Assembly: GCA_949283575.1 (NCBI GenBank)
Contig: CASDSU010000028.1
Span: forward strand, 128,849 to 192,848
DNA: 64,000 bases
Reading direction: 5' to 3'
Source: an uncultured Eubacteriales bacterium
GTDB lineage: Bacteria; Bacillota; Clostridia; TANB77; UBA1234
The notes below the pieces were generated by a model, which ran no database searches, had not been told where the DNA came from, and worked only from the letters and a program-made list of their open reading frames with translations. Shown here piece by piece: positions 13,334 through 63,100 of this stretch (the first letter of the stretch is position 1; the number at the start of each line of letters is the position of its first letter). Both the position numbers and the translations under genes were made by a program.

Positions 13334-13344
13334 AAGTGCGACAT

Positions 13345-13413
13345 TACTCGCTCACTACTCGCTTTTACTCGCTCATTACTTGTTTCTACTCGCTCATTAC
13401 TCGCTTATTACAT
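13345..13413. repeat. tandem array of about 6.5 copies of a 10-11 bp unit TACTCGCT(C/T)(A/T)(C/T), helical-phase periodicity
   Basis: tactcgctcac|tactcgcttt|tactcgctcat|tacttgtttc|tactcgctcat|tactcgcttat|tacattc. Unit is the reverse complement of the GTGCGAGTA/GAGCGAGTA motif found at 9848 and 12676. Confidence 0.75.
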
Positions 13414-14871: not shown

Positions 14872-14885
14872 AAGTTACCTCCTAA

Positions 14886-15815: not shown

Positions 15816-16018
15816 TTCATCACCTCAAAAAAATTCATAAAAACACAAGAAAAATCTTGACTTATTTCGAATGATAATATATATTTGAAATAAGTTAGAA
15901 ACTATAATATTTCTAACACATTATAGTTTGTTTCTAAGATATATTTAAATTATATATCAAAAGTATTACAAAGTCAAATATATCTAAAGTAAAAAATGAT
16001 GAAAGGAGGGATGAACAC

Positions 16019-16222
16019 ATGAGAGATAAAGCTTTAGAATCAAAACCAATGCCAGTACTGTACTCAACAGATGATGTATGCAAAATGTTTCATATCAGTA
16101 GGCTTACTTGTCTAAACCTATTTCGCAGAAATGACTTTCCAGCTCAAAAGTTTGGACGAGCCTACAAAGTGGAAGCAAATGCACTAAATGAATATCTTAG
16201 CAAAAGACATATCTTGGCATAA
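16019..16222 (+). CDS. xis: excisionase-family DNA-binding protein (Xis, MerR-like HTH)
   Basis: 67 aa, small basic HTH protein immediately upstream of the integrase; RBS AAAGGAGGGATG. Confidence 0.65.
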   Translation: MRDKALESKPMPVLYSTDDVCKMFHISRLTCLNLFRRNDFPAQKFGRAYKVEANALNEYLSKRHILA

Positions 16223-16362
16223 AAAGAAAGAAGACTTAGAAAATGGCGTTTCTAAATCTTCAACACGAACCAGGGAATGTCCCAAGCTCTAACCTATGAG
16301 AAGATTATAACACAATAAAGTAATAGTTTTCAAGACATTCCCTTAAATTTTAAGAGGGATCT

Positions 16363-28585: not shown

Positions 28586-28661
28586 GTGGCTCGGGTGGTA
28601 GGATTCGAACCCACGTACTGTCAGAGTCAGAGTCTGATGCCTTACCGCTTGGCGACACCCG
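28586..28661 (-). tRNA. tRNA-Gln (anticodon CTG)
   Basis: Reverse complement folds: acceptor TCGGGTG/CACCCGA, D-loop AGCGGTAA, anticodon stem TCAGA/TCTGA with loop CTCTGAC, T-loop TTCGAAT, CCA encoded. Confidence 0.8.
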
Positions 28662-29047
28662 AATTTCTACCACTCAATATTACCAAATTAGTCACTGTCT
28701 TTGCAATACTTTTTCTGCTTTTTCATCCAATATTGTTTTCAAGCAGAAGAATTATATTTGAGGAGTTATCGGCAGATAGAAACCATCACCATCATTTACC
28801 TCGATCAAAAATGTTTTATTTACAAACCAAATCCCATGTTAGATTGAACAATCATATTGTAAAATTCCCTTCCATCGACCACCTTGAGATGAGAGTTCAT
28901 AAAAAGGTATTTGCTCTTGATGTCCACCAAATATCAGAGCATACAACGAGTCACCAGCGTCATCTGCTATCTGTTCCTTGTGCTTTTGCCCTTTTCATGA
29001 TAAAATGATTGCAGAATTATGGTAACTTCTGATTTAAAGGAGGATTT

Positions 29048-31376: not shown

Positions 31377-31445
31377 TGGACAAAAGCCCCGTCCCCTTGT
31401 CCACAAAAAAGAAACGACCATCCACAGATAGTCGTTTCTTTTTTG
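31377..31445. terminator. two tandem hairpins between convergent genes
   Basis: TGGACAA-N13-TTGTCCA and GAAACGAC-N12-GTCGTTTC followed by T7. Confidence 0.55.
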
Positions 31446-31478
31446 TGTAATCAAACCTTAAACATACTCTTTCGAGCG

Positions 31479-33134
31479 TCAGCTCTTGAGGTAGTTATAC
31501 AGGTTTACAAAGTACTCTTCAACCATGCGGCCAGTAGAATACTGCTTTGCCGTCATGATAGAGGCATACATCATGTTCATCCAAATCGGCTTGTTCTCGT
31601 AAGTCGGCAGGACTTCGTACTTCAGCACATGCATGAGCGCCTTAGCATCGTTCTCATCCTGGAAGTTGCTTCCGAACTCACCATTGCCGATGTTGAAGCC
31701 ATTGACGCCATGGTATGCAGCTTCACGCCACCAGCCGTCAAGCGTACTGACGTTGAGCGTGCCGTTCATGGCAGCCTTCATGCCGGAAGTACCACATGCC
31801 TCAAGCGGTACACGCGGGTTGTTGAGCCAAACATCGGCACCAGCAACCAGCTTCTGAGCCAGTTCAATGTTGTAACCTTCAAGGAAAACAACATTATTCG
31901 GATACTGCTTAGAGAGATGGTAGATTTCCGAGATGAACCCCTTACCGCTGGTATCATGGCGATGAGCCTTACCAGTAAACACGATCTGCATGTCGTAAGT
32001 CTTGATCAGATACTCAAAGCGAGCCTTTTCGCGGAAAATCAGATTCCAGCGCTTGTACTCAGTTGCACGGCGAGCAAAAGCAATCAAGATGCTTTCCTGC
32101 CTAAACTGAACACCAGTGCGAAGCTTAATTTCTTTGATCAGGTCAGCCTTACAGTGTTCATGAGCACCATAAATCCCCTGAACACTCTTGGCTTCAAAGG
32201 CTTGCTTGATGCTCGGATTCCACCAAGTACCCGGATGTACACCGTTGGTGATAGCGATAAAGTTCGGAGCACCGTCAACCCAGTGCCACATATCCTTCGC
32301 CGCCATAACCTGAAGACGAGACACACCATTGGCCATGGAAGCCAGACGCAGAGACGCAACCGTCATACCGAAAGGATTGCCACCAATACGTTCAAGCTGA
32401 GCATGCGTAAGTCCGGCATTTGCGCCAACCTCCATCAGAAGGTCAACAGAATGAGATTCGTTGCCAGCCGGAACATTCGTATGAGTGGTAAACGCCGTAC
32501 GATCCTTGACATGGCGCCAGGCACGCTGGAAGCGTTCTTCATCAGACATACCAGACTCATGCAAACGATAATGCTCCATGCGCTGAGAAATGAGTTCAAG
32601 ACCAGCAAAAGCCGGATGACCATCGTTGTAATGATAGCCATCAATCTGAAGGCCAAGAGCATCGATTGCGCGCACACCGCCAATACCAAGAACGATTTCC
32701 TGAGCAATACGTTCCTTCTCAGCGTGATCCCAAGCACCACCATAGAGATAATGGGTGATGTTACAGAACTCACCATTCTTCTCCATGTCAGTGTCGAGAT
32801 AGTAAACAGGACCGTTCTTCAGCTTCCAAATCTTAACGGCAACAGGCTTGCCAAAGATGGAAACTTCTACTTCCTTGCCAGTATCTTCGAGATACCTCTC
32901 CCAGGCATTACCCTGAGGTTCACGATCCGTGACTTCACCGCGTTCATTCACGCGCTGCATGCTGTAGCCCTTCTTCCACAGGATATGAAAGAAAGTAATA
33001 GGATAAAGCTTCTGATTATCCATAACCTCCTTGATCATATCGCCAGCGAGGATTTCAAGACCACCGCCGTAGGTCAGCAGATCATTATAGATGCCAGATC
33101 CCATAGAGAAATAGGCAATCCGCTTTTCATACAT
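31479..33134 (-). CDS. alpha-glucan (glycogen/maltodextrin) phosphorylase, GT35
   Basis: PLP-lysine motif EACGTSGMKAAMNG; start set at MYEKR with RBS AAGGAGG; about 50% GC versus about 30% background. Confidence 0.85.
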   Translation of the reverse strand: MYEKRIAYFSMGSGIYNDLLTYGGGLEILAGDMIKEVMDNQKLYPITFFHILWKKGYSMQRVNERGEVTDREPQGNAWERYLEDTGKEVEVSIFGKPVAVKIWKLKNGPVYYLDTDMEKNGEFCNITHYLYGGAWDHAEKERIAQEIVLGIGGVRAIDALGLQIDGYHYNDGHPAFAGLELISQRMEHYRLHESGMSDEERFQRAWRHVKDRTAFTTHTNVPAGNESHSVDLLMEVGANAGLTHAQLERIGGNPFGMTVASLRLASMANGVSRLQVMAAKDMWHWVDGAPNFIAITNGVHPGTWWNPSIKQAFEAKSVQGIYGAHEHCKADLIKEIKLRTGVQFRQESILIAFARRATEYKRWNLIFREKARFEYLIKTYDMQIVFTGKAHRHDTSGKGFISEIYHLSKQYPNNVVFLEGYNIELAQKLVAGADVWLNNPRVPLEACGTSGMKAAMNGTLNVSTLDGWWREAAYHGVNGFNIGNGEFGSNFQDENDAKALMHVLKYEVLPTYENKPIWMNMMYASIMTAKQYSTGRMVEEYFVNLYNYLKS

Positions 33135-33299
33135 GAGAATAACCTCCTTTTTCCGCATTATCTGCGAAACAGTCCAAAAGAAAAATTCCGTCTCTAAGAT
33201 ATTATCCTATTCGCCAAACTTTGACAAGCATAAAATAAAAAGTCCTGAAAATACTTGTTTACAGGGCTTTTATTTAAAGTTTATATGTAAACTGATTGG

Positions 33300-37412: not shown

Positions 37413-38228
37413 TTAAGCTTCCGTGAAAGGCTTCTTGCTCAGCATACGGTTATACTTCGCAAGCTCGTGCACCTCTTCACTTTCAGAGAGCATGATAACG
37501 CCAACATCTTCAGCATTTTGGAGATACAATGCCAGTGCGACATTCAGCTCATCGTCAGTAGTCGGCGTATCAGTCATCCCACTTTCACGTTCACACATGA
37601 GCTGCTCCTTGGGAATGTCCGGAACGAGTCTGGTATATACGCGGACAAAACCGGTATAACCCGGATACGGCGCACCCGGAATATTCTGGCTCGTTTCAGC
37701 CTCCTGAAGCTTATCCAGCTCTCGCTGCGTCGTATAGAAGACCGCATCGCTCTCGAGCTTCATGTACCTCGGATCAAACCGCTGCGACAAGAAACAGCCA
37801 TACAACGAGTTAGCATAGCTCGACATTGCACTACAGTCCATGAAATACACAGCCTTCCTACAAGCATCTGCAAAATCCTCAGGAGACAAGCCATCATCCC
37901 CCTCCATCTTGCAAAGTCTTATCCTTGCTTCCTCTGCTTCCTCTTCAGAAAAGCCATATTCTTGCATCCTCCGATGCTTCCGATAATTCTTGGTCAGATA
38001 AACGATGTCAGAAACCGTCATCAAACAGACTATCATTCCGATAGAGCCGACAGTGAAATAAGCAATCCACTTCAGCACTACTCGTCCAGCCGGAACGGCC
38101 AAAAGCAGAACGCTGGCAATCAGCGTAGCAAGGAACCAACCCAGCTCATGCAAAGTACTACTAACCTGATCATAAACGTGGTTCTCGTTTTTCCAAACCT
38201 TCTTGATATACTTCCACAGATTCATCAT
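37413..38228 (-). CDS. hypothetical membrane-anchored protein (GC-richer island)
   Basis: Start at MMNLW with RBS AAGGAGGG; two TM helices; about 48% GC. Confidence 0.5.
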   Translation of the reverse strand: MMNLWKYIKKVWKNENHVYDQVSSTLHELGWFLATLIASVLLLAVPAGRVVLKWIAYFTVGSIGMIVCLMTVSDIVYLTKNYRKHRRMQEYGFSEEEAEEARIRLCKMEGDDGLSPEDFADACRKAVYFMDCSAMSSYANSLYGCFLSQRFDPRYMKLESDAVFYTTQRELDKLQEAETSQNIPGAPYPGYTGFVRVYTRLVPDIPKEQLMCERESGMTDTPTTDDELNVALALYLQNAEDVGVIMLSESEEVHELAKYNRMLSKKPFTEA

Positions 38229-38273
38229 GATGTCGCCCTCCTTGTGATTCGTGTTCTTCAAACATTCATAACA

Positions 38274-38669
38274 TCAAACGTTCGTTTTATCTTTGACTTC
38301 CAAATAAATCGGAATACCGTCATACGGCTTAAGTCCAATTTCAGCATACGACGACAACTCATACATCGGAAATAGCGTGGCATCAAAACCATGTTTTCTC
38401 ATATGAGTCATAAAATCGCGTACAACTGCCATACTCACGTAAAACTTGAACTTATTGACAGGCTTGTACTTTCGATAATGCAACCTTCCTCCATCAAAGC
38501 ACATGCTCGAATCCAGTTCATGCTGCCTGTACATTCTAAAGAAGTCAAAGAAATGCTTAATATGCATGTTCACAAACTCAACGTACTTCTGATAGTCTTC
38601 ATGAACGCTGCTTCTTGCCATGATGCACAACAATAGAAAAAACAAACACTTCTTGAACTCTAGTGGCAT
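38274..38669 (-). CDS. hypothetical protein
   Basis: RBS GAGGGGGAATG; about 40% GC. Confidence 0.5.
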   Translation of the reverse strand: MPLEFKKCLFFLLLCIMARSSVHEDYQKYVEFVNMHIKHFFDFFRMYRQHELDSSMCFDGGRLHYRKYKPVNKFKFYVSMAVVRDFMTHMRKHGFDATLFPMYELSSYAEIGLKPYDGIPIYLEVKDKTNV

Positions 38670-41726: not shown

Positions 41727-42761
41727 TCACCTCGTTATAATTTGATTTAATTTTCCTTCTCCATCCGAATATTCAAATTCTGCGAAAGCACCATTTATAA
41801 TAGTCCATTGAGGTGCAACATGGCCAAAATCAACATCATAAATTACTGGTACTTTTAAGTCATCCAAAATATCATGCAATGCATCTTCATATGTAAAATC
41901 ACCAATGTCTGCTCTCGAATTTGTTCTTCCAAAAATAAATCCTTTTGCGTTTTCAAACCAACCAGCCATCTTCATTTGCCATAAAGTTCTCTTTATATCA
42001 GTAATTGGCATCTCACAATTTTCAAGATACCAAACCATACCTTCTTCAAAAGAATTACAGAAATTCTTAGTGTTATCAAATGGTGTTCCAAGAAGTACTT
42101 TCAAAACATCCACACATCCCCCAATAATTCTACCAGAAAAACTAGCATCTCCTTCATACAAATTCTTATACACAACTTTCTCAGTTAAATTGTATGGATT
42201 GCATTCTGCACCAGGACTTCTATCACGTTCTTTTTCAAAAAAATGATAATTATTTTGCATAAAATCTGATGGATTTTGAACAAAATCAACAGGAGTTTTT
42301 AACGATTTATCCCAAGGAATCATAGCAAAACTCGAAAAAGAATTTGCATGAATCGTCGCAATATTATAATTCGTAGTTAAATAAAAATTTAACAAACTAA
42401 CATCTGAAAAACCTTGAATCCATTTCGGTTTTGCATTCAAAATCTTCTCTTTATTTTCATGTAAAAATGGAATTGTTTCCATCAAAAATTCTCCACCACA
42501 AGCGATAATTATGTATGGAATATCTTCTCGCTCTATAAGTTCCAAAAATTGACTCGCTCTATCTAAGGCACTAGAACTAGCTAACTTTTTATCTAATTTT
42601 ACATTGCTAGTTTCTACAATTTGAAAACCTTTGTTAATAAAATTTTTTCTCGCATTTTCTAATTTAATTTTTCCTCTGTCATCACCAAGACCAGAAGACA
42701 TTGCTGTAACACCAATGTTAGCACCTATTTCAACTTTAGCCGGATATATAATTTTAGCCAT
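41727..42761 (-). CDS. LD-carboxypeptidase (peptidase S66, MccF-like)
   Basis: Start at MAKIIY with RBS AAGGAAGGAG; S66 architecture and conserved blocks (GVTAMSSG, ACGGEF, catalytic Ser/His/Glu regions). Confidence 0.7.
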   Translation of the reverse strand: MAKIIYPAKVEIGANIGVTAMSSGLGDDRGKIKLENARKNFINKGFQIVETSNVKLDKKLASSSALDRASQFLELIEREDIPYIIIACGGEFLMETIPFLHENKEKILNAKPKWIQGFSDVSLLNFYLTTNYNIATIHANSFSSFAMIPWDKSLKTPVDFVQNPSDFMQNNYHFFEKERDRSPGAECNPYNLTEKVVYKNLYEGDASFSGRIIGGCVDVLKVLLGTPFDNTKNFCNSFEEGMVWYLENCEMPITDIKRTLWQMKMAGWFENAKGFIFGRTNSRADIGDFTYEDALHDILDDLKVPVIYDVDFGHVAPQWTIINGAFAEFEYSDGEGKLNQIITR

Positions 42762-42840
42762 ATTATTCTCCTTCCTTTTAATCTTCAATATATTATATTT
42801 TTTCCAAACTTTTATAAAAATATATCACAAAAAAGCATAA

Positions 42841-43224
42841 AAAAAAAGCTTGCAAGAACTGCAAGCTTCATCTCCAAATTCCCTTTCGGAATTGCCACGC
42901 GTTAGGCCGCGTGGCCAGCCTCTCGCAACTCCCCTTCTACCAAGGTCCCCCGAAGGGGACCTCGGCAGAAGAGAGAGAAGCAAGAAGCAAATCAAACAAA
43001 TATTATTTTATTTTGTATATACATTTTTTGTTTTCAAACAATATTTGTTTGATTTTTGGAGATTCTTCGTATGCTGATCTGCAGCTCAACATACGAAGAT
43101 TGAATTCAGCGCTGAATTATTTCTTGATCCGACATTACTGTCATTTCAAGAAATGGTCGATTTGGTTAACGTTGTGACTAGCCCTAACTCACATTTCTGT
43201 GAGGATTGACTACCTTACCAGTCG
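42841..43224 (-). other. GC-rich, hairpin-dense 3' region of the acidic-protein gene, ending in a terminator (hairpin 42846-42868 plus U7 on the minus strand)
   Basis: Six stem-loops: AAGCTTGC/GCAAGCTT, CCACGCG/CGCGTGG, GGTCCCC-CGAA-GGGGACC, TCAAACAA/TTGTTTGA, CTTCGTATG/CATACGAAG, AATTCAGC/GCTGAATT. Confidence 0.4.
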
Positions 43225-45330
43225 TTAAGTGGGAGAACCAAGATCGATGACGTCTTCAGTCTCAACAGACGGAGCGCCAAGATCAACGGTCTCTTCAACA
43301 ACAGGAGCAGGCTGCTCTTCTACCACAGGGGCAGAAGCTTCAACCTTTTCCTCAGCAGGAGCACGCTCCTCGCTGTGGTCGGAATCTTCCTGCACAGCAG
43401 GCTGTTCCTCCACAGCGGGCTCTTCGGTAGGAACACGCTCGCCATTATGGGCGGTCTCGTCTTCCACAGGAGCCTGCTCTTCGACGGTTTCCTCAACCAC
43501 GGGAGCGCCAAGGTCAATCACGTCCTCGGTAACAACCTCAGGCTGTTCTTCAGTAACCTCTTCGACCACAGGCTGCTCTTCGACGGTTTCCTCAACCACG
43601 GGAGCGCCAAGGTCAATCACGTCCTCGGTAACAACCTCAGGCTGTTCTTCGGTAACCTCTTCGACCACAGGCTGCTCTTCGACGGTTTCCTCAACCACGG
43701 GAGCGCCAAGGTCAATCACGTCTTCGGTAACAACCTCAGGCTGTTCTTCAGTAACTTCTTCGACCACAGGCTGCTCTTCGACGGTTTCCTCAACCACGGG
43801 AGCGCCAAGGTCAATCACGTCCTCGGTAACAACCTCAGGCTGCTCTTCAACCGGAGGCTGAGCCTCGGTTTCCACTTCGGGAGAACCGAGGTCAACAAGC
43901 TCTTCCTCATCCACGGGAGCCTGTTCTTCAACAGACTCAGGGATGCGCTCTTCGTTGTGCTCGGTATCCGGCTCAACGTCAGGCTGCTCTTCGGGCACGA
44001 TTTCCGGGGATCCAAGATCCACCATGTCGTCACTACCGGGGGCAGGCTGGTCGTCGGGGTTGCCAAGGTCAACGTCGTCGTCTTCCGGAGCGGGAGTACG
44101 CTCCGGATTGTGAGCGGGAGTCTGAGTAGCTTCCGGAGCCTGAGTCACTTCAGGAGTGCGCTCGGGTTCCGGAGTACGCTCGGGATTGTGAGCGGGAGTC
44201 TGAGTAGCTTCCGGAGTCTGAGTCACTTCAGGAGTGCGCTCGGGTTCCGGAGTGCGCACAGGGTTGTGACTGGTCTCAGGATCCGGAGTGCGCACAGGGT
44301 TGTGGCTGGTCTCCGGATCCGGAGTGGGAGTCGGAGTGGGAGTCGGAGTGGGAGTCGGAGTGGGAGTCGGAGTCGGAGTGGGAGTCGGAGTGGGAGTCGG
44401 AGTGGGAGTCGAAGTCGGGTCATCGCCAGAGGGAGGATTAGAAGGAACGTAATGACCACCACACCAGAACAGACCATACACCTTCACTTCTTCTCCATCT
44501 TCCGTCTCCTCCCAATAACAAGCCGCATCATCCAGAGCAGCCCACTCTTCGTCAGTCAGTTCTTCATGAATGATCATGCCGATGGCCTTAGCACCATTCA
44601 GCAGACCACCACACTGGTCACAAGTTTCCACACGAGTTTCCTCGTCAGGAATACGCTCGGTGTAGGGCAGATCCCACTCACCATTATCGTGACCAGGCGT
44701 GAGCGCAGCTTCTTCATCGGTGCAGCAGAAGACAGAAATCTTCTCGCCGTTAACCATGAAGTTGACCGGCTCGTTGGTGTGGTCGTGATTCAGAGTCCCC
44801 TCTTCTTCACAATTATTCATGAAGTTAACCGGGAACACTTCGTCACCCTTGTGAGGCACATTGTAAGCACCGAACTCGTTCACCCGCGCAAGGCGATTGA
44901 ACAGGAATCGGCACATAATCTCAGTGCCATCTTCGCGAACGATGATGTCGTTATCTTCCACAACTTCAGTTGCGTCATCAACGTTCTCTTCGGTCGCGCC
45001 AGAAGTGACGGTCTCTTCCTCATCGGAATCACCAGTCTCTTCGGGGGCAGGAGTTGCCGGAGCGGGAGTAACCGGAACATCCGTCACCTCAGGGGTGGCA
45101 GTAACTTCCGCACTCTGCTCGCCGGCAGTGTTCTTAGCAAACAAGTTGGAGAACCAGTTGGAAACATTGTTCCAGACATTGGTTGCCTTATCGGCCAGAT
45201 CAGTTACAACAGACTCGACGTTGCTCTTCGCAGCGTCATAACCATTGGTTCTGACATCGCCAACAAAACGCGCTCCAACGAGCACGAGGGCGATCACGAG
45301 AACCAGAAGCAGAGACTTCCAAATCTTCAT
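43225..45330 (-). CDS. membrane-anchored hyper-acidic repeat protein (Cys-containing domain, (TP)n linker, 4 x 33-aa E/V/P-rich repeats); 56-58% GC, foreign
   Basis: Start MKIWKSLLLVLVIALVLV with perfect RBS AAAGGAGAA. In-frame 99-bp tandem repeats and 12-nt (GGAGTGGGAGTC)n coding (TP)n. GC about 57% against about 30% background. Confidence 0.7.
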   Translation of the reverse strand: MKIWKSLLLVLVIALVLVGARFVGDVRTNGYDAAKSNVESVVTDLADKATNVWNNVSNWFSNLFAKNTAGEQSAEVTATPEVTDVPVTPAPATPAPEETGDSDEEETVTSGATEENVDDATEVVEDNDIIVREDGTEIMCRFLFNRLARVNEFGAYNVPHKGDEVFPVNFMNNCEEEGTLNHDHTNEPVNFMVNGEKISVFCCTDEEAALTPGHDNGEWDLPYTERIPDEETRVETCDQCGGLLNGAKAIGMIIHEELTDEEWAALDDAACYWEETEDGEEVKVYGLFWCGGHYVPSNPPSGDDPTSTPTPTPTPTPTPTPTPTPTPTPTPTPTPTPDPETSHNPVRTPDPETSHNPVRTPEPERTPEVTQTPEATQTPAHNPERTPEPERTPEVTQAPEATQTPAHNPERTPAPEDDDVDLGNPDDQPAPGSDDMVDLGSPEIVPEEQPDVEPDTEHNEERIPESVEEQAPVDEEELVDLGSPEVETEAQPPVEEQPEVVTEDVIDLGAPVVEETVEEQPVVEEVTEEQPEVVTEDVIDLGAPVVEETVEEQPVVEEVTEEQPEVVTEDVIDLGAPVVEETVEEQPVVEEVTEEQPEVVTEDVIDLGAPVVEETVEEQAPVEDETAHNGERVPTEEPAVEEQPAVQEDSDHSEERAPAEEKVEASAPVVEEQPAPVVEETVDLGAPSVETEDVIDLGSPT
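43483..43860. repeat. about 3.8 tandem copies of a 99-bp coding repeat
   Basis: Unit ACGGTTTCCTCAACCACGGGAGCGCCAAGGTCAATCACGTC.TCGGTAACAACCTCAGGCTGTTCTTC.GTAAC.TCTTCGACCACAGGCTGCTCTTCG recurs at 43483, 43582, 43681, 43780. Confidence 0.85.
44323..44412. repeat. microsatellite (GGAGTGGGAGTC)n encoding (TP)n
   Basis: Direct reading of the sequence. Confidence 0.85.
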
Positions 45331-45750
45331 GTTATTCTTCTCCTTTTCTTCATCTTCATAGGGGACCAGGGACATTGGGTGTCTTGCGACGTTCAACTTT
45401 CAGTGATTTCTCACCTCCTTGTACGTCACGGTCGGTCGTTACGGTGCTCTGCAGTTACTATATGTCAATCGTTATGTCTTCTATCCGTCGATAAAAAACA
45501 AACGAGAATTTTCCAGGGACCATCTCGATGAAACATAAACAGGCATTCAATTACAGATACATTTTACCACAAAACTGTCAATTTTTCAATAGTTTTACAT
45601 AATAAGTAACATAAGCCATACTTATTATCTTTTGTAAAAATATGTAAATTTTTTCTTTTAGATATTCCCCCCATTTTTATCTTCAATATACTTATTTTGT
45701 TTGATTTTTACAGATACTATTTATATAATGTTTCTAGGAGGTTGATTAAC

Positions 45751-46866
45751 ATGATTATTTTGCATTGCACATTACAAACAACATGGGACAAAGAGTCTAG
45801 AACAGATACTTTCGGTGCAACCGATATAGAAAGTACAGGCTCTATCACTTGCATAAGACCAGATAAAGTAAATAGCGAAAACTTTTCTTTTCCAACAACA
45901 ATGAATCATCTTGTTCTTTGCATAAATACAGATGCGCTAGATCAAGATTCATTAAGATACGAAGGAGATTATATATATATTTCAAAGCCAATTGTGCCAA
46001 CCGCAATTGTTGCTACTATTCCATACACTTATGATGCTGACGATAAATTTGCTAAAAGTAGCGAGCTTATTGACATTGAAATTGTGAATGAAGTGCTTGA
46101 AAAACTTAATCTTTCGTTTATAAATTTCAAATATTTTAGAGATGGAACTAGTAGCCGAATTTTCTTATTAAACGGCCAATACGTTGTAAAACAAAACCTT
46201 CAAAGTCTATTAAAAAGTGAAGTTGAGTTTTATGAGATGTATAAGGATGTAAAGAAACTTCAAAAAGTTGTATTATCATCTGATGAAAACAAATATATTG
46301 TTTACGAATTTATTCCAGGCGATGTAATGCATACAGTTGACGACTTTGATGATGTTATGGCTAATATTAAAGAAATTATAAATTCGTATAAGGATTATGA
46401 AAAAGACGAATTTGGATACATTTATAAGCCTTCTACATCTTGGATTGAGTTCTTAAAATCAGAGGTACATGAAGAAAGTTTGAAGTTTTCGGATTCATTC
46501 GACTTTTTGCCTCATGTTTATGAAGCAATAGCTACTCTTGAGAAATTTACTTTCAAAAAGAAGTTGATTCATGGCGATTTTGGAACGCATAATTTTATAA
46601 AAAAAGATAGAAAATTTGTAGCAGCTATAGATCCAATTCCAGTAGCAGGCGATCCGCTTTATGATTTCTTGTATGCTTGCTTAAGTAACCTAGATATCGT
46701 AAAGCATTTATCTGTAGATTACTTAGCTGAGGAAACTGGCGAACCAGAAGAAAAAGTTAAAGCAATGCTTATAATAATGCTATTTTTCAGACTTTCAGTT
46801 TGCTTAAGACATCACAAAGAAGATTTTGATTCTTACGTCGATTTTTGGTATGACATTATAGCTTAA
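45751..46866 (+). CDS. fusion protein: N-terminal DUF952-like domain plus C-terminal aminoglycoside-phosphotransferase-like kinase domain
   Basis: Start MIILHCT with RBS AGGAGGTTGA; C-terminal Brenner motif LIHGDFGTHNF and AAIDPIPVAGDPLYDF. Confidence 0.6.
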   Translation: MIILHCTLQTTWDKESRTDTFGATDIESTGSITCIRPDKVNSENFSFPTTMNHLVLCINTDALDQDSLRYEGDYIYISKPIVPTAIVATIPYTYDADDKFAKSSELIDIEIVNEVLEKLNLSFINFKYFRDGTSSRIFLLNGQYVVKQNLQSLLKSEVEFYEMYKDVKKLQKVVLSSDENKYIVYEFIPGDVMHTVDDFDDVMANIKEIINSYKDYEKDEFGYIYKPSTSWIEFLKSEVHEESLKFSDSFDFLPHVYEAIATLEKFTFKKKLIHGDFGTHNFIKKDRKFVAAIDPIPVAGDPLYDFLYACLSNLDIVKHLSVDYLAEETGEPEEKVKAMLIIMLFFRLSVCLRHHKEDFDSYVDFWYDIIA

Positions 46867-51323: not shown

Positions 51324-54300
51324 TTATTCATCATAATCGCCTGGTTGATCTCCCATAAAGTGTCTTTGATATGTGCTCATTGCATCAGTATATTCACTAG
51401 AGAAATGACCAGAAGATGTTGTCTTTCCAAATCCAGCAAGATTTTTAACCACATTCATTTTTGCATTTCTTCTTTCTTCTAGTATTTGCTCTCTTGTTTG
51501 ACCATTTAGGAATCTTTGTTCACTCATACCACCTTCTGTAATATCAACATGGTTTTGCGCTAATATATCTGCAGCAATATCTCTTACGTATTGTCTTTCA
51601 GTTAGATTTGATTGGCGTCTTGCTTCTGACATGCTATCAATTATCTGTTGTTTTTTCGCTTCACGAGTAGCATCATCATGTTCAAACATTAATGCAACTA
51701 ATTCGTGTCCTGATAGTTCATCATCAAACACACCATCTCTCAAATCTGATTCATATGTACCCAAAATTGTCCTAACTCTATTTCTATTGTAATGACCAGA
51801 ACCTTCTTCTTTTACTTTATGAGCCATCATATGTCTTAACAAATCAGCGTCAACATCAAGTGTTTCTGCCATTTGATGCGCAACCTCGCTAGATCCAGCG
51901 TTTGATTTTATTTTACTTGTAGCATCTAAATAATCTTCTGCAGTAAACAAACCTGAATTTCTATTTGCGATTACAAATAAACTACGTGCAACTTCTTTTT
52001 CTTCCGCAGTTACCTCTTCACCGTCTTCATGAAAACTTGCTGCCCAAGCATCTGCATCAGCACGAATTTGTCTTTTTCTTTCTCTATCAGCATCATCTAA
52101 TGCATCTGTTCTAGATCTATATGTAAAGCTATTCATTACACTTTCAAGTTCTGATAATCCTGCTTCAACTTCATTTCTAGAACTTTCAAGTGGATCATCA
52201 TATCTGCTAGCACCTGTAAATGCCAATCCCGTAAGCAACATGTTTTTATATCTATCTTGCTCTATTTCCGACATTCCTTCTAATGTATATCCAAGTCTCA
52301 TTTGAATATGTCTGTCTATGCTTACTGTATCAAATGTACCATTTGCAACCATATGCGCAACTTCATTTCCAATATTTTGCATATCATTCATCTGATCAGC
52401 TGTTAATTTTAAGTCTTGTAACAATTCATTATTTGGATTTTCAGCTCTTGCTTGATCAACAATTTGTCTTGCTCTTGCAAGTTCTTCTGCACTTCTCGAG
52501 TTTGGATTATTTAAATCTGCAATTGCATTTGCAAGTCGCAAATTACTAGCTTTCATTGCACGTTTTTCTTCATCACTTATACTCATTGCATCAATTGCAT
52601 CCATCGAACTTTGTGCATGATCTAATCTTAATCCTGCATTTGGTGCTTCTACTGGTCTAGCCATTGCATCAAACACTCCCAATTTAGCATCCGCTACCTT
52701 TACATTCGCACTTGCATTTTTTACTTTATTGTATACACTATCTTTACCTACGAATGGCTTAGCAACAGTCTTCACCGCTTTTACTGCAATTGCAGTTTTT
52801 GCGATTTGACCTGCTGTATCTTTAAGTGAACTTGATGCACCTGAAGGTGACTCTTGAGAGAATATCTTCTTAATAATTTCTTCACCAGTAAATAAGAATG
52901 TAACACCGGTAATTACTAAGATATAATCAAATCCTGTTGCTGAGCTATATGTAGAATACACTGTTCCACATACAAAAACATATACTATTGCATGGAATGA
53001 TTGTATCAATACATTAAGCATAAATTCTTTATTCCATTTATTAAACGCTTGAGATTTTCCATCTGCAATACGATCCACCGCATAGAATAAAGTAACTATT
53101 GGGAATATCGCAATTAAAAAACCTACCATAAATAAACGTTTATAATAATGTACTATCAGTGTTATAAGCTGCCATGTAAGTATCAAATAAGCAAGCGCCA
53201 TTGCAAATCTTTTTCCATTTTGTGCATCGTTTGCAATCTGTGACATATAATCACTTCCATCTGAATTAAATGGTTGTGTATCAAAATTAACATCTATTAA
53301 AGATTTTGTTTCATCAGTAATTTCTGTAGGAGGCAATGTTGACGGTGTTATTGAGTATTGATTACCCACTCCCACAAATCTATTAGCCTCAATTACATCA
53401 ACAAATGTATTATTCAAAAGTATTGTATATTTCATAACATATGGATATAAGAATAATATCATTACACCTATAACCCAATACAAAAATAACGTCTTATATT
53501 GTGAAAGACTTTCACCTGTTGAAGCAAGCATTATTCTTATGCCCATATATAGTAGCATAATCATATATCCAACAATCGCAATTTTTTGGAAGAAACTATA
53601 AGTCTTGTTTATTGTCTCTGAAAGACCACCGTTTCCATTTCCACTACTTCCCCATATAAGCTCTGAATAATTATCGCGTTTTAAATCATCAAAGAAGTCT
53701 ACGATTACAGGCGAATAATTATTAAACACTATATCATCAATTGTTACACGATAGCCAACTGCCAGTGCAATTAACTTGTTTATTGCATTCGCTATTGCGT
53801 TTAACAGCATCGCTATCATTTTTTCAAGTGGATCTAACCCCACAGCTTTATCATCGACAGGTTGTGTCGCTGGACGAAGAGCTTGTAACGGTTGATATAA
53901 TGGGGTACCATCTGTTCTAGTTGGTGTCACTAATGTTGGTGCCGTACCAGATTCTCTTTCTCCATCTAATATTTCTTGATCTATGTTTGGTCTGTATTCA
54001 ATTTTATCAGCATATCTAACCGATAAAGAATCATTTCCACTACCCAAGCTTGCCTCAATATCATCTGCTTCACTTCCATTCAAAGTAGGAAATGTGAATG
54101 TATATGAAATACCTTCTCCATCTACACCAGCAGATGTAACTTCTGTAAGTTGGCCTTCATGAAGTACACCATTATAAAGTACCTTATATGTAAGTTCTGT
54201 TGAATACCAATAATCTGCATTACCTGGCATTTGAGTTGCAACCATATTATTACCAATATCCATTTTGGCTTGTGTTGGCATATCGCCTTCTCTATTAATA

Positions 54301-54575
54301 TGAGTAATTGTAATAGCTGCTCCACCGCTCGCTAGGCCAGTAACTCTCGTCTCTATAGAATCATCATATTGACCTTCTGTAGTATTTACCTCTCGCTCTA
54401 AATCAGCTGAATACCACACTGGATTCTGAGCAGGAATGTTGTCAATATTATTTAATAACAAATTTACATTCACAGAAATCGGTTCATTATCAGCTAATAC
54501 AACCTGCGTAGGCAATATGCAATTTAGTAACATCACTACCAATATTAACTTAAACATAAAACGTTTGAATTTCAT
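51324..54575 (-). CDS. giant paralogous membrane protein C (1083 aa): signal peptide, about 330-aa ectodomain, conserved 5-6 TM core, about 500-aa charged tail
   Basis: Signal peptide MKFKRFMFKLILVVMLLNCILPTQVVLA; core motif IVHYYKRLFMVGFLIAIFPIVTLFYAVDRIADGKSQAFNKWNKEFMLNVLIQSFHAIVYV shared with the two upstream genes; RBS GAAGGGAGGTAGG. Confidence 0.7.
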   Translation of the reverse strand: MKFKRFMFKLILVVMLLNCILPTQVVLADNEPISVNVNLLLNNIDNIPAQNPVWYSADLEREVNTTEGQYDDSIETRVTGLASGGAAITITHINREGDMPTQAKMDIGNNMVATQMPGNADYWYSTELTYKVLYNGVLHEGQLTEVTSAGVDGEGISYTFTFPTLNGSEADDIEASLGSGNDSLSVRYADKIEYRPNIDQEILDGERESGTAPTLVTPTRTDGTPLYQPLQALRPATQPVDDKAVGLDPLEKMIAMLLNAIANAINKLIALAVGYRVTIDDIVFNNYSPVIVDFFDDLKRDNYSELIWGSSGNGNGGLSETINKTYSFFQKIAIVGYMIMLLYMGIRIMLASTGESLSQYKTLFLYWVIGVMILFLYPYVMKYTILLNNTFVDVIEANRFVGVGNQYSITPSTLPPTEITDETKSLIDVNFDTQPFNSDGSDYMSQIANDAQNGKRFAMALAYLILTWQLITLIVHYYKRLFMVGFLIAIFPIVTLFYAVDRIADGKSQAFNKWNKEFMLNVLIQSFHAIVYVFVCGTVYSTYSSATGFDYILVITGVTFLFTGEEIIKKIFSQESPSGASSSLKDTAGQIAKTAIAVKAVKTVAKPFVGKDSVYNKVKNASANVKVADAKLGVFDAMARPVEAPNAGLRLDHAQSSMDAIDAMSISDEEKRAMKASNLRLANAIADLNNPNSRSAEELARARQIVDQARAENPNNELLQDLKLTADQMNDMQNIGNEVAHMVANGTFDTVSIDRHIQMRLGYTLEGMSEIEQDRYKNMLLTGLAFTGASRYDDPLESSRNEVEAGLSELESVMNSFTYRSRTDALDDADRERKRQIRADADAWAASFHEDGEEVTAEEKEVARSLFVIANRNSGLFTAEDYLDATSKIKSNAGSSEVAHQMAETLDVDADLLRHMMAHKVKEEGSGHYNRNRVRTILGTYESDLRDGVFDDELSGHELVALMFEHDDATREAKKQQIIDSMSEARRQSNLTERQYVRDIAADILAQNHVDITEGGMSEQRFLNGQTREQILEERRNAKMNVVKNLAGFGKTTSSGHFSSEYTDAMSTYQRHFMGDQPGDYDE

Positions 54576-54596
54576 ATTGCCTACCTCCCTTCTAGT

Positions 54597-57500
54597 TTAA
54601 TTTCCACCATTTATTTTGTTCAACCTTTCACTAAGTGTTTTACCACTTCCGGCACTTGGCACTGAAGTTTTATCTCTTAATGCTGACTTTCTTAAATCTA
54701 TTGCTTGTCCTCTAGTAGATGGGGCAGATGAAGATGAACCAGAACCTTTTCCTGAAGCCGATTGACGTGGTTTTAAAGATTCTGCAAATTTATCTTTTAC
54801 CGTACCCACAGTAGAAGCAACATCGTTTACTCTATTTGTAACAAATTTTGATGTACTACTATATGCTTTATCTGCTAACGAATATCCTCCTAATGCTGCT
54901 GTAGCACTAGATACTGTTAGTAAGTCACCTGTTTTTCCACCGGCAACACCGGCAGCCATCATACCAACTCCAACATCAAGCGGCATTCTTACCGACATAT
55001 CCATAGCTGCTCCACCCAAATTTTTAGCCATTTCAACCAAATCGTCTTTAATAGCTTTTTTGCTTGCTTCATATCCGCTTTTAGCTGCAGCTATTTGTTC
55101 TTCTCTTTGTCTTTGTCTAAACGCAGCTTCAAGTGTACTTTGAAGAGCAGATTCTTCAGAAGCTGTTACAATACCATTCGTAGCCATTTGCTCTACAGTC
55201 TGATATGATCTTGCAGTTCTAGCAATTGGAGTATATCCTTCTTGTAAATCACCTGGCTCATATCTAAGCATACTTAGTAATATATCATCACTTGGAAGAG
55301 ACTTAACATGTCTAATAGATGAATCCATAATTCTACCTTTATTTGGATCACTATCTGCAACCAGTGATGGATCATTCAATACTTGAATTCTAACATTTGA
55401 TTCATAATCATCCAAATTATATTTCAACTGACCAACAATCTTCTCCATGGCTTCATGCGCAGGAGAACCATGTGGTATCATCAACATTATTGCACGGATA
55501 TTATCAATATGCGATACTACATCAGATGCTGTATATTCACCTAAGTGAGACTGATTGATTGCTGTAACAGAATATGCTAATTGCTCTAACTTAATATCAT
55601 CAACTGGACTTATATCATCTTGACGTGTAGCTTTAGCTTGTTCAGCCATTTTTCTAGCTTCACGAACTTCTCTTTCTGTATTTAATGTGATTACATTTGA
55701 TTCAGTTGTTAAAACTCTTTGAGTTGAAGGATTATCTCTTACAAATACTACTGTTTCAACATCCTTACTATGTGTAGAACCAGATGAAACTGGAGTCGGC
55801 GGAACGCTCGTATCCTTCGGTGGCGTATATAATCCATTAATTACGATTTTTTCTTTATCCAAATCTTTATTTCTTGCATATTGCATAATTTCTTCAGGAA
55901 GCGAAATTGTTTTTGTAGGATTGTTTGGATCTTGAACTCTTCCAAACGTGTTCTTCACATTAGTCTTTGCATCACTAATAGCTTCAGAAATTCTAGTTGG
56001 AACATTTCTAATTTCAGTTGGAACCATAGTTGCCATTGAATATGCTTTTGCACCTATTTCAACAATTCCCACACCTGCATCTTTTATAAAGTCTGCCGTT
56101 CTTCCTGGTGCAGAAGCAATTCTACCCAAGCTATCAGAGGTTCTTTCTGCCATTCTTGAAAACATACCCTGATGAGAATGAATTTTTTCATCCCTTAAGA
56201 TGCCTTGCATAATTTCTCTTTCTTTAGCGTAAGAATCTCTTAATTCATTTCTTTCTACAGCCCTTTGTTGTTGCTCTCTAATAACATTTGCCACTCTTGT
56301 ATTAGCAGTAGCCGCATTAGCCTCAGCTTCAGCTCTCTTTCTAGCTTTTTTATCAGCCATTCTTCTAATCTTGTTATCATATTGTGTATCTGAAACCAAG
56401 CTAATAGATGTATCAATTGCAGTCTTCCTTGCATCGTTTCTCTCAAGTCTATCATTTACTCTTTGAGCTCTTCTTTCTGCAACCTTTTCATCTCTTCTAG
56501 CTCTCTCATAACTACTTGAGAAATCTCTACTTATTTCTTTCTCTAATCTTGCATTTCTCATCGTTTGAACAGGAGAAACTATCTTTACACCTTGTCTTCT
56601 CAAATCAGCTCTTGAAGCCTTTATATCCTTATATACAAGTTGCTCACGTTTACGTGCATCTGCAAGCGACTTTATTGCTTTTTCCTCTCTTCTCTTTGCA
56701 CGTTCCATTGCTGCAGCATCGCTACCAGCCCTACTCATTGCAGCTCGTGCACTTCTTAAATCTTCTTCTGCAGATTTGATTTCTTGTTTTATGCCTCGAG
56801 TACCATTATATGTATTACCATATAACGCTTCATGAGCTCTTTTATTTGTAGCTTTTAAATTATCTTTAACTTTCTTTCTAGTCTTTGCTTCACTGCGCCA
56901 TGAATCATATCTATCAATTGTGCTTTCTGCTTTCTTCATAACGCTAGGACCTTTAATTACAGCACCTCTGCTTCTTAAGAAGTCGTTTGCCTTTTGACGT
57001 TCAGCTTTAGCTGTTGAATAATCGCCCTTTGTACCTACAGTTACTCTATCTTTAATCATTTGACTTGCTGTTCTTATTTCAGTACCTATAATTGTGCGAT
57101 AAGCTGCTCTTTCTTCCTTCTTAGCCATACGAACAGTAGGTCTATTATAAAATTTCTCTGCTCTACTAGCTCTTACAAGTTGTACACCATTATCTCTTAA
57201 AGTTTTTCTAATTGCATTTGAATTATCTAAAATTCTTCTTTCTTGTTCAGATAAATTAGCAGGATTCTTTTTTCTTAACTCTTTTAATTTCTTAACCGCA
57301 TATTTTTGAGAACCTTTATCCAATATTTTTTGTGCTCTTGTTTGTTTTCTAGAATGGTTAGGATCATATCCTCTAAATGATGTTTTTCTAGATTTAGCTA
57401 CTTGCTCTTCTAGCGCTTTTGCGCTCTTTTCATACCTTTCAGCTAATGCCCTATCGCCTCTAGCACGAGCATTATCAGCATCTCTTCTCATAACTAAAGC

Positions 57501-60197: not shown

Positions 60198-63100
60198 TAA
60201 CCTTGATCTTGATTATTATAAAATATATCTTGATTTGCTGTAACTTGTCGTCTACTTTCTAAGTTTTGTCTATATTTATCTTGAAGTCTTGATTCGTTTT
60301 TTCTTGCTCTTGCTTCTGCTCTTGCTTCTCCAGCAGTAGGAGCTACTCTTCCATTTCCATAGTCTGCTGTTTGAGCTTCTTGTCTTGCTTGATCAGCGGC
60401 TCTATTGCTTGAAGTTTGAGCAGAACCTCTATTTTGACCATTATTATTTGCATATCTATTTCTATCTTGTCCTGTAGGAGCTTTTGAACCTGATGAGCTT
60501 GACGCCGCAGAATCCTTTTTTACACCTGTAACTTTTCTGTTCTTACCAGATATGATATTTCCAACTGCCATACCTGCTGCAAAATCTCCAATATCTCCTC
60601 CACCTGCAAGTCCAGTAGTTATTATACTATACACAGCCGCAACATTTCTAAGAGGTTGTACTATTTTTTCAGCCCTTCTTCTTCTATCTCTCGCACGTTG
60701 TGATGCTTCTCTCTTTCTTCTACGTTTTTCTTCCTCTTGCTCATGTTTTTCGCGACTTTGTTGTAAACGAGCTTCAGCATCATCATGATTTCCTCCTCTT
60801 GCCATATCCTTTTTAATTTTATTTTGCTCTTTTTTCCACTTTAAGTCTGACTTTTCATCTTGTTTTTTCTCTTTCTGATGTGCTTTTTCATCTTTAGCAT
60901 CATATTTTGAATCAATTCCTTTTGTACCACTAATAACTTTAGAAGCAGCATATGCTGTAAGTGCATATTTACCACCTTTAACAGCGCTATCTTTTAGATT
61001 TGATACCGTAGTACTTTCTTTCATGCCAATAATAGATTTAACTACACCTTCCATAGGGAATATTGCCATAACCGCAAACAAGAATAATAACCAGTTATCA
61101 GAATCTGCCTCATATATCTTCAAACCAGTTTCAACTAACATTACATATAAGAATGCGTGCACAGATTGAATAAATACATTCACCAAATATTCCTTAATCC
61201 ATGTTTTAAACGTTTGACTTTTCTCAATTCCCATTAATTTTTCAATTGCATACATCATTACAACAAGTGGGAATATCGTTATCAAAACTCCGACTACAAC
61301 TAAACGTTTGTAATATAAGAACAATAACAATACTAATTGATACATCATGATGTACCACACTGCAACAAACACTAATCTATTCGTCGATCCAGCTCTACTT
61401 CTCATTGTTCCTTCAAGGTCTATTCCTCTAGAAGATAAGTCAATGGCTTTTTCCACATCTTCCATAGCACCTTGTAATTCTATGTAATCATAATATGCTA
61501 TCGCATAATCCAATAATTGAGCTTTTACCGTACTATCACGCAAGAAAAGAAATGCAAGTATATTTCCCTCAATCTCAACATTTGTTGCCTGCCTAGCTAC
61601 GATATCTGTAATTTGTTGTTCTGTAAGTGTACCTGACTGTTCTAATTCAATTTCAATTTCTCTTATCGCCATATCCAAAGGTCTTTTATACATGCTACTA
61701 TCTATTACCCAAATCTCATCTACTCCAATAATCCAATATAAAAATGTTCCTTTCTTATTAGCAACTGCTCTCTGAGCCTCTCGCCAAGTTTGCTCTGATT
61801 CTATATATTTATCTTCAATTATGTCTCGCATCTCTATTAACTGATCTTTTATTGATTCTGTTGTTGAGTCTTCACCAAACTGATATATCTGTGGCGAAAT
61901 ACCAAACCTTTCAATGAAATCGGTATTATATACTGAGAAAATAGAATATTCACTGCTATCTCTAAATATTTTTACTAAAATATCATTCATCATAACCGCA
62001 TATTTCATAAAATATGGTCCAAAGAACAACAGTGCAACCGCAAGGACCCATCCAACAAGCATGTTTTGAATTTTATTTTGTTTTGCACCACCACTAAGAA
62101 ACATCGTTTTTATACCCATTGCTATTAAAACAACTACTAATATCATTTGTGTCCATGCGCTAAAAGCTTTATACCAACCATTTACAATTAATTGGAATAA
62201 ATCTACATATGCACCACCATCGCCTGTTTTCCAAAAATCCAAAATGGTATTGGCATATTGGTTGAAAATTAATGAATCTAATGTTAAATTCTTTCCTCCA
62301 ACCATGTTAATTACACCTCTAAATAAGTCTCCAATAGAAAGTGCAACCTCCGCAATAATTTTTTCTATAGTAGTATTTTCATTATTATCTAAAATCTCTG
62401 ATGTAAGTCCTCTAAATTCATAAACAACCTCAGCTCCATTTGATCCAAACGTATAAGAATCTCCACCAGTAGCTTTTGACATCGTTTGAGGTCCTGTAAC
62501 CTGATATCTCAACCATTTAATATCGTCAATAACTTTAAAGTCTATTTTTGCCTTTGAACTTTGTTGAAGAGTTGAAAACGCAATCAACTCATTTTCTTTT
62601 AACCCTGCTGACGCAAAAACATAAACTTGTGGGTGTGATGCAGCATTTGCAGCAACAGTTCCTGTTGAAATAGTCGAGTTACCTAAATCTGATGTAAGCT
62701 GATATTTAAAACCTTCACCCCAGAGATAAACAAGTCCTAGCAAATATGTTCCTCTTTCATATTTAAAATTCATGTAAGAAACAATCTTATACAAAGGAGG
62801 CGTGAACCCCATTGAAGTCGATACATCATTATATATGGCTCCCGGTTGTACATAATTTATTCCTTCACTCTTTTTCGGTCCAGTAACAGAATAGAATCCT
62901 AAAGTATCAGTAGTTGATAATCTCTTGAAAACTACTTTCTTATCTTCCTCAAATATAGTAATCATATATTTTCCGTATTTCTGACTCGCATCAGAATTTT
63001 TAAATGTATAGAAAAAAGAATCTTTAAATTTACCTGCTGTAGCAAAGCTAATAATTATTTCATCATATTTCATATCTAAGAACAAAGGCTTTTCTTTACT

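Follow-up and report, generated by a model that had tools for sequence, protein, structure and literature searches.

The window analysed here is a 64,000-nucleotide stretch of contig CASDSU010000028.1 (assembly GCA_949283575.1) from an uncultured Eubacteriales bacterium, and this report concerns one gene within it, hereafter the target, together with its flanking untranslated regions (UTRs). The GC profile rises from a background of ~0.28–0.33 to 0.48–0.63 across ~43100–45500, in a window that is ~30% GC overall. The coding sequence at 43225–45330 lies on the minus strand, as do all elements of the target described below; it begins with the ATG at 45330, encodes 701 amino acids followed by a TAA stop, and specifies a predicted membrane-anchored, hyper-acidic repeat protein of an orphan family. 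An alternative TTG start would give a longer, 723-residue version and is without a ribosome-binding site. The coding sequence has a GC content of 0.558, with 0.72, 0.42 and 0.53 at the first, second and third codon positions (GC1, GC2 and GC3), while GC3 in nine neighbour genes is 0.18–0.32. With an isoelectric point of 4.05, the protein carries a net charge of about -151; it contains 124 Glu, 54 Asp, 83 Pro, 89 Val and 73 Thr residues; in its acidic tail GC1 climbs to as much as 0.86. The total GC of the target (~56%) is largely a matter of amino-acid composition, that is, of the G-starting codons for Glu, Val, Asp, Ala and Gly. An initial annotation, made from the letters of the sequence, had drawn attention to a GC-rich region with codon usage unlike that of its neighbours, and both observations stand (GC 0.56 vs ~0.31; GC3 0.53 vs ~0.2). 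Below, W denotes the window copy of the target gene and L-numbers denote the other contigs and assemblies that carry the target locus.

The target is predicted to be transcribed alone, as a monocistronic unit. A promoter scan identified a near-consensus sigma-A-type promoter at 45561–45589, comprising TTGAAA, a 17-nt spacer and the extended -10 element TGgTAAAAT (10 of 12 matches plus the TG); in the alignment, the -35 element, the TGn-10 and ~20 nt further upstream are kept in W, L008/L009, L011, L013 and L015. The transcript start inferred from this promoter leaves a 5′ UTR of ~220 nt (45331–45553, from sequence and alignment), which is modestly structured, with fold z-scores of -1.5 in W and -3.05 in L008. 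The ribosome-binding site AAAGGAG (45340–45346) lies 9 nt upstream of the ATG in a block, AAAGGAGAA, that is invariant in seven of seven aligned sequences; the perfect ribosome-binding site and signal anchor of the initial annotation are both present. Some 85 nt upstream of the ATG there is a second, perfect Shine-Dalgarno (SD) sequence, AAGGAGGTGA (45420–45411), overlapping a GNRA hairpin, GUGA-GAAA-UCAC (45403–45420), that is predicted in W and L008. This SD is an orphan in that no start codon follows at a workable spacing, the nearest in-frame start being a TTG at 45396, ~17 nt downstream, and it is kept in W, L014, L008/L009 and L011, which represent four of six lineages. In Firmicutes, SD sequences of this orphan kind are known to stabilise long-lived mRNAs, examples being the STAB-SD of cry3A and those of ermC and atpE (PMC3997798); by analogy, we infer that the orphan SD of the target is a candidate STAB-SD-like stabiliser against 5′ exonuclease.

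The encoded protein opens with a hydrophobic signal anchor (residues 6–20; 45271–45315), evident in the translation, preceded by Lys residues and present in all relatives; the predicted topology is N-in/C-out. A ~170-residue Cys/His domain (residues 126–295; 44446–44955) was delimited in family alignments, in which H160, H182, H184, C202, C203, C237, C240 and C290 are invariant, and is possibly metal-binding. Searches of Pfam, NCBIfam, PHROG and PDB sequences with the target returned only sub-threshold, low-complexity matches, for example to lasso-peptide models. AlphaFold2 models computed from a five-sequence alignment were unusable, with a mean predicted local distance difference test score (pLDDT) of 42.8 for the N-terminal 302 residues and 37.8 for the domain alone; a helix at residues 2–68 is the sole part of the target with a pLDDT of 56–76. 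Beyond the domain, an acidic, Pro-rich tail is studded across the family with [VI]D[LN]G[SAE]P and HNxxxxP motifs, and family C-termini read ...DLGSP[TE] or ...IDNGEPPM, with W ending in ...VIDLGSPT. No LPXTG motif, SLH or other cell-wall-binding domain, or lipobox Cys was found when the C-terminus, signal region and Pfam matches of the W protein were checked. Family members P0003 (L008 313–2664) and P0005 (L011 2093–4906) carry, between the Cys/His domain and the acidic tail, one to seven inserted Cys4 modules of ~75 residues with the pattern HxHxYT..C..GY...C.CG....ALGHxWGxW....C..C, which has no Pfam match.

Tandem Repeats Finder resolved four arrays in the gene. A (Thr-Pro)n linker is encoded by a 6/12-bp microsatellite at 44320–44418 (6-bp unit, 16.5 copies), inside which contig L005 ends. 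It is followed by 36-bp (2.4 copies; 44239–44326) and 78-bp (2.3 copies; 44093–44269) in-frame repeats with HNPxRTPEP-type motifs, which together span 44093–44326 and add to the arrays reported earlier, and then by four near-identical in-frame 99-bp repeats (EEQPEVVTEDVIDLGAPVVEETVEEQPVVEEVT; 43474–43849), scored as 3.8 copies with 97% matches. The sense-strand architecture first proposed (anchor, Cys domain, Thr-Pro linker, acidic repeats) is seen in the translation and recurs in the relatives, and the Thr-Pro microsatellite and four 99-bp repeats are likewise borne out. The gene copy in L001 encodes 675 residues and differs from W solely by one 78-bp (26-residue) unit fewer. Since contigs built from short reads tend to break within the gene, as L002, L004 and L005 do, this length difference could be a real polymorphism or an assembly collapse. 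All array units (6, 36, 78 and 99 bp) are divisible by three and lie inside the open reading frame (ORF), so that length alone can vary. Of the size or phase variation first suggested, size variation is therefore plausible, with one 78-bp unit between W and L001 and totals of 389–937 residues among orthologues, and phase variation is not.

When 1.84 billion representative proteins were searched with HMMER, using the N-terminal 305 residues as the query, five true relatives emerged (E = 3e-16 to 4e-29; 34–54% identity), along with two further matches that were spurious repeat proteins. All five relatives belong to one clade of ~30% GC Clostridia, and all have a Lys-containing N-terminus, the hydrophobic anchor, a Trp-rich helix, an acidic linker, the ~170-residue Cys/His domain, a Pro/Thr/Gly-rich linker and the acidic tail, which is highly variable in length. 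A GTDB protein-pattern scan for the family and a megablast search of plasmid and phage collections gave no match. An exact look-up of the 701-residue sequence was empty because of the repeat-length difference. A word-indexed protein search with the N-terminal 305 residues, the family alignment and the acidic C-terminus was also empty, although a near-identical 675-residue protein sits on an ENA contig, and negatives of that search for low-complexity, acidic queries carry little weight.

Past the stop codon, the 390 nt at 42835–43224 fold at -178.4 kcal/mol, against -94.7 ± 5.5 for shuffled sequences (z = -15.1; 0 of 100 shuffles as good). The region comprises about eight stem-loops followed by a terminator hairpin and a U9 run; the hairpin-dense region proposed in the initial annotation thus holds, and its counts of six stem-loops and U7 are corrected. 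In the minimum-free-energy fold, the proximal part (43103–43203) forms H1 (43188–43203, GAAA loop), H2 (43119–43154, GUAA loop) and the palindromic H3 (43103–43118). H2 is GNRA-looped in W, L008 and L011, and H3 is conserved with a compensatory change of CAG/CUG vs CGG/CCG. H4 (43064–43099) has a 14-bp stem, of which 10 pairs have changed on both sides with pairing kept, and a conserved GCUGCAGA loop. In the alignment, the 19-bp AT-rich stem of Hb (42990–43054) has sequence-invariant arms, ATCAAACAAATATTG and ATATTTGTTTGAT, around a variable loop of 29–37 nt. Hc (42920–42986) pairs a CU-rich 5′ strand with a GGGGAG-containing 3′ strand in a stem of ~29 bp (7 double-change pairs and 10 with single-side changes involving G-U). 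The tetraloop at its apex differs between lineages: UUCG for W and L008, GCAA for L011, GUAA for L013 and L015. Two further hairpins, Hd (42894–42915, GCCACGCG/CGCGUGGC) and He (42877–42893, GAAA tetraloop), occupy 42877–42915. The intrinsic terminator recovered by a terminator scan, an 11-bp hairpin with U9 (42837–42869), shows compensatory changes across lineages in 4 of 10 pairs.

Covariation was assessed by aligning the 3′ regions of W, L008, L011, L013 and L015. RNAalifold placed 85 pairs in five helices, with 95.9% of alignment cells paired in the consensus structure, and 25 of the 85 pairs carry compensatory double changes; shuffles gave 10.3 ± 2.2 such pairs (0 of 500 reached 25), and sliding the partners by 1–3 columns left 2–6. 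By a hand count from the pair table, the sense strand has ~55 G-U cells, which would be A-C mismatches on the other strand, so that the structure belongs to the sense transcript. Judged by this pattern of substitution, the 3′ region is a conserved structured RNA of the sense strand, in keeping with the structured 3′ UTR or RNA that had been suggested. In Rfam 15, no family reached the gathering threshold in the 3′ region and only three tRNAs did so across the window; the best matches in 42600–45800, to hairpin-like models of miRNAs, scored 26 bits where the cut-offs are 63–230. The closing helix AAUCUCCAAA/UUUGGAGAU of the minimum-energy fold of W is not in the consensus structure and seems only partly complementary in L008 and L013, and the downstream sequence of L007 does not align with the other 3′ UTRs. 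A dispersed repeat of the repetitive extragenic palindromic (REP) or miniature inverted-repeat transposable element (MITE) type was ruled out, the 3′ UTR region being single-copy. The Hb pattern is unique within the window and has one occurrence in the GTDB species genomes, in one metagenome-assembled genome (MAG); L015 is a MAG of that collection, found by the DNA pattern of the invariant hairpin. The pattern was absent from the JGI metagenomes and IMG/VR data searched, and a second pattern used at JGI was also unmatched.

Directly past the terminator, the block TTTTTTTTTATGCTTTTTTrTGrTATAT (42790–42840) is kept in all lineages, and the downstream TGnTATATT is conserved. It looks like the own extended -10 promoter of the following S66 LD-carboxypeptidase gene, with the T run of the terminator serving as upstream A/T-rich DNA. 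With the S66 gene having its own promoter after the terminator, the hairpin region is part of the target transcript; a riboswitch or leader for the S66 gene was ruled out by the intervening terminator and the conserved extended -10 promoter. Alternatively, the distal region from Hb to the terminator (~42840–43054) could constitute an independent or 3′ UTR-derived small RNA acting in trans. It is the best-conserved part, with the invariant arms, the CU-rich strand and, nearby, the conserved H4 loop, and the Hb 5′ arm contains a -35-like TTGATA or TTGAAA; long functional 3′ UTRs and small RNAs derived from them are known (PMC3868564, PMC5737220). We nevertheless consider a trans-acting RNA unlikely: the variable Hb loop has no conserved -10 element at the right spacing, further copies or targets did not emerge from the searches made, and a crude, unrestricted duplex-energy test between the 5′ and 3′ UTRs performed no better than shuffles. 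In the absence of that -10 element a 3′ UTR is favoured over an independent gene, with a processed small RNA being possible.

The codon usage of the target is anomalous in every lineage, with a GC3 of 0.44–0.54 vs 0.14–0.26 in neighbour genes. The anomaly is specific to certain bases. Across six lineages, A makes up 0.02–0.09 of four-fold sites in the target vs 0.36–0.42 in neighbours, T stays at ~0.5, which is the neighbour level, and C rises from 0.04–0.08 in neighbours to 0.26–0.35. Lys is encoded by AAG in 102 of 118 cases (86%; 117/627 in neighbours) and Gln by CAG in 130 of 132 (98%; 19/160 in neighbours), while Glu is split ~50:50 between GAA and GAG; CCA and UCA codons are entirely missing. 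C-ending codons are favoured over U-ending ones for Phe, Tyr, Ile and Asn, at log-odds of 1.6–2.6 relative to bulk genes.

The pattern has persisted over considerable divergence. Identity between lineages at four-fold sites is 0.33–0.54 in the target, where composition predicts 0.30–0.41, and 0.34–0.56 in neighbours, where it predicts 0.30–0.43; being near expectation, synonymous sites are close to randomised, and the GC contrast persists nonetheless. No sign of amelioration was seen, in that the avoidance of A and the CAG/AAG bias are held in six lineages despite near-saturated four-fold sites. A and T are treated differently, on one strand, in six lineages, which argues for selection, since mutation bias, amelioration and GC-biased gene conversion would treat both alike; GC-biased gene conversion was ruled out because T is not depleted. 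The bias is thus apparently maintained by selection on the transcript or on its translation. The preference for C over U runs in the direction that translational selection reportedly takes universally. U-ending codons in four-fold boxes, for their part, are typical optimal codons of AT-rich Firmicutes, and CCA and UCA have been reported as optimal codons in Lactobacillus (PMC5629928).

The target does not stand alone in the window. A glucan phosphorylase gene (PF00343; 31479–33158, minus strand) shares its usage (AAG 32/34, CAG 17/18, four-fold A 0.05, GC3 0.53), the phosphorylase orthologue in L013 (16377–17428) has a GC3 of 0.50 and the same usage, and two or three further window genes share it in part. 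Other GC3-elevated genes lie at 37413–38669 and 4788–5633 (both minus strand); they encode a 282-residue membrane protein, a 131-residue ORF (GC3 ~0.5, no Pfam match) and an AAA_33 kinase-like protein (GC3 0.43), and orthologues of the 282-residue membrane protein are moderately GC3-elevated in L011 and L013 (0.34–0.38).

Two other accounts of the codon usage have to be weighed against selection on a highly expressed gene. First, the usage may be a regulatory or protective device, in which codons read by G34 or C34 tRNAs make expression independent of U34 tRNAs, for instance under tRNA-modification limitation or attack by an anticodon nuclease, or allow evasion of an A-specific endoribonuclease. 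The avoidance is indeed specific to A, near-absolute where a C34 tRNA can exist (Lys, Gln) and relaxed for Glu; it is confined to a few functionally unrelated genes and absent from the putative S-layer-type SLH protein; and a tRNA-Gln(CUG) gene, which reads CAG, the nearly sole Gln codon of the target, lies in the window at 28587–28662 (minus strand). The C-over-U preference speaks against such a device, being the signature of ordinary translational selection already mentioned, and we regard this account as doubtful. A broader version, in which a handful of genes, the target and the phosphorylase among them, use a second codon repertoire (G34/C34 tRNAs, decoupled from the U34 pool or from an A-specific RNase) and the 3′ UTR is a regulatory RNA module and not a passive stabiliser, appears improbable to a similar degree; the module may in that case be a processing platform, a protein-binding platform or a small RNA precursor.

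Second, the target, the phosphorylase and others could have entered the ancestor of the clade by ancient transfer from a ~50% GC donor and retained donor-like usage. Several window genes of unrelated function do share a GC3 of ~0.5 and the AAG/CAG usage, and the codon table appears to resemble that of moderately GC-rich anaerobes. Retention unaided by selection is not credible, however, when four-fold sites are nearly randomised and when near-exclusive CAG and near-absent A are found in six lineages with T at the host level, a one-strand A/T asymmetry that neither mutation bias nor amelioration could attain. The HMMER search yielded no donor homologue for the target, and a foreign origin would not explain its present composition; we therefore hold an ancient transfer with retained usage to be rather improbable.

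The genomic context argues for vertical inheritance of the target. Gene order is conserved, with HD and APH-like genes on one side and S66 LD-carboxypeptidase, flavin reductase, radical-SAM and SLH-protein genes on the other, and the conserved site is seen in L008, L011/L012, L013 and L015, which comprise every relative with usable flanking DNA. YpeB and SLH genes are present, and so the host organisms are spore-forming Clostridia. Neighbour orthologues are 62–92% identical between lineages, while the target is only 37–46% identical, and L008 and L011 are the closest pair for target and neighbours alike. From this shared synteny and matching closest pair, the target gene is, on comparative grounds, vertically inherited, fast-evolving and clade-specific.

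A recently acquired island with unameliorated foreign codon usage, which the initial annotation had attributed to a high-GC, Actinobacteria-like donor, is accordingly very hard to sustain. It would account for the strong local contrast in GC and codon usage, and a weak, AT-rich, imperfect 28-nt direct repeat (79% identical; 42776–42803 and 45674–45701) does bracket the transcription unit. That repeat is probably due to chance, and not a target-site duplication, since further short matches in the vicinity are out of line with it. Against a recent import, the same locus is occupied in at least four other lineages whose neighbour proteins have diverged to the extent given above, no homologue exists outside the clade or in plasmid or phage collections among the searches made, no integrase or tRNA lies within 10 kb of the target, the GC3 is 0.53 where ~0.9 would be expected of Actinobacteria, and the anomaly persists at near-saturated four-fold sites.

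That the real gene is instead a 718-residue antisense ORF (43375–45531, plus strand), or the region an assembly chimera, is next to impossible: the codon-aligned antisense frame is stop-free in W, L011, L013 and L007 but broken in L008 (two stops) and L015 (one stop), the same artefact occurs opposite the phosphorylase gene (a fully open 584-residue ORF at 31443–33197, plus strand), the sense frame has the conserved promoter, ribosome-binding site, signal anchor, Cys/His domain and terminator, and the sequence across both GC boundaries is 99.9% identical among independent assemblies. Where the antisense frame is open, this is because TTA, CTA and TCA codons are avoided in the sense gene. The assemblies in question were located by exact look-up of the neighbouring HD-domain protein; among them, the 141-kb ENA contig L001 is 99.9% identical to the window over 20.5 kb and crosses both GC transitions, which disposes of the chimera that the initial annotation had flagged, and the same GC step occurs at the same locus in four further lineages.

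Taken together, we favour, with moderate confidence, a model in which the target has been passed down vertically, at a single chromosomal locus, within a small clade of uncultured, ~30% GC, spore-forming Clostridia (Eubacteriales) to which it is confined, and has a selected codon usage, a stabilised and highly expressed mRNA, and a polyanionic surface protein as its product. The near-consensus sigma-A promoter would direct synthesis of the monocistronic mRNA with its ~220-nt 5′ UTR. Binding of 30S subunits at the orphan SD would raise a barrier to 5′ exonuclease and make the mRNA long-lived, and the ~380-nt 3′ UTR, with its seven to eight tetraloop-capped hairpins, would block 3′ exonucleases and might also serve as a processing or protein-binding module. 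The N-terminal anchor would hold the protein in the membrane, with the Cys/His domain, the Thr-Pro linker and the polyanionic tail outside the cell. The tail, built of repeats that turn over fast, may form a surface polyanionic brush or a cation-binding layer under diversifying selection. The GC-richness of the gene would then combine amino-acid composition with a selected usage that avoids A-ending codons and prefers C over U in two-fold boxes, and the simplest reading of this usage is selection at the level of translation or of the mRNA, acting on a gene with very high expression.

Several points weigh against this model. High expression and both stabiliser roles are deduced from sequence features, as are the function and topology of the protein, and they should be read as predictions. 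The covariation is drawn from five sequences representing four lineages, and the L013/L015 lineage has a degenerate version of the orphan SD. The exclusive AAG/CAG usage and the complete avoidance of CCA and UCA differ from the classic optimal codons of AT-rich Firmicutes, and the nearby SLH-domain protein, a possible S-layer protein, is without such a codon bias. No ribosomal-protein genes fall within the sequence reached (the window and 10 kb beyond its start) for a comparison of translational selection, and the genes in the added 10 kb are ordinary in codon usage. For the protein, structure prediction failed, and no fold or family match backs a function.

Parts of the proposed arrangement have counterparts in known systems. 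The 3′ stem-loop of cry1Aa is a ‘retroregulator’, and cry-type mRNAs resemble the predicted target transcript in having stable stem-loops ahead of the terminator, a monocistronic organisation and a strong promoter. The Bacillus thuringiensis cry genes and other long-lived Firmicute mRNAs also share with it a strong SD, without a start codon, in a long 5′ UTR (PMC3997798). The 3′ module of the target is far larger, however: its seven to eight hairpins extend over ~380 nt and include conserved loops and a sequence-invariant AT-rich stem. The orphan SD of the target, a candidate stabiliser, is not kept in all lineages. The long 3′ UTRs of Staphylococcus aureus icaR and B. subtilis hbs are likewise >100 nt, with a C/U-rich, anti-SD-like strand and an SD in the 5′ UTR (PMC3868564, PMC5737220). 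In the target, by contrast, the CU-rich strand is paired in cis within Hc, with covariation, and 5′/3′ pairing did not exceed chance in the crude test.

Gram-positive bacteria possess repeat surface proteins such as the Ser-Asp repeat Sdr proteins, and Pro/Thr-rich regions that span the wall. Like such proteins, the target has an export signal and a globular domain, followed by a long stretch, acidic or Pro-rich, that in-frame tandem repeats encode; in both, the copy number changes and evolution is rapid. It differs in having no sequence homology to them and no LPXTG, SLH or lipobox, in its predicted anchoring by an N-terminal transmembrane helix and in its charge of -151, and in database searches its [VI]DLG[SA]P and HNxxxxP motifs and its Cys/His domain have no described counterpart. 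Its codon usage, finally, resembles that of highly expressed codon outliers that mimic ‘alien’ genes, in a strong departure from the bulk, C over U in two-fold boxes and U-ending four-fold codons (PMC5629928), but the contrast is very large (GC3 0.53 vs 0.2), A-ending codons including CCA and UCA are near-absent, and Lys and Gln are encoded as AAG and CAG.

Both the orphan protein family and the conserved 3′ UTR RNA motif are new, and both are narrow in distribution. The locus offers a counter-example to the equation of a sharp island of GC and codon usage with recent transfer, in that this island is syntenic and its anomaly apparently selected; island detection by composition and metagenome binning would misassign or lose genes of this kind. 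The combination of strong promoter, orphan SD and multi-hairpin 3′ UTR may represent a natural clostridial cassette for highly stable mRNAs, and the protein defines a fast-evolving family of predicted hyper-acidic envelope proteins with conserved short motifs.

Elsewhere in the window, three very large consecutive ORFs of 1083, 1866 and 1024 residues occupy 51324–63271 (minus strand). The 1083-residue protein, the one of the three that the Pfam scan took in, has no Pfam match; the 1866- and 1024-residue proteins contain hydrophobic segments and long tails rich in Lys, Arg and Glu. At 5796–17778, tRNA-His and tRNA-Gln(UUG) genes are followed by an apparent integrated mobilisable element with a GC content of 0.25–0.29, below that of the rest of the window, which encodes RepA_N, TnpV, DUF6664, NikA/MobC, a relaxase and a tyrosine integrase (16363–17778).

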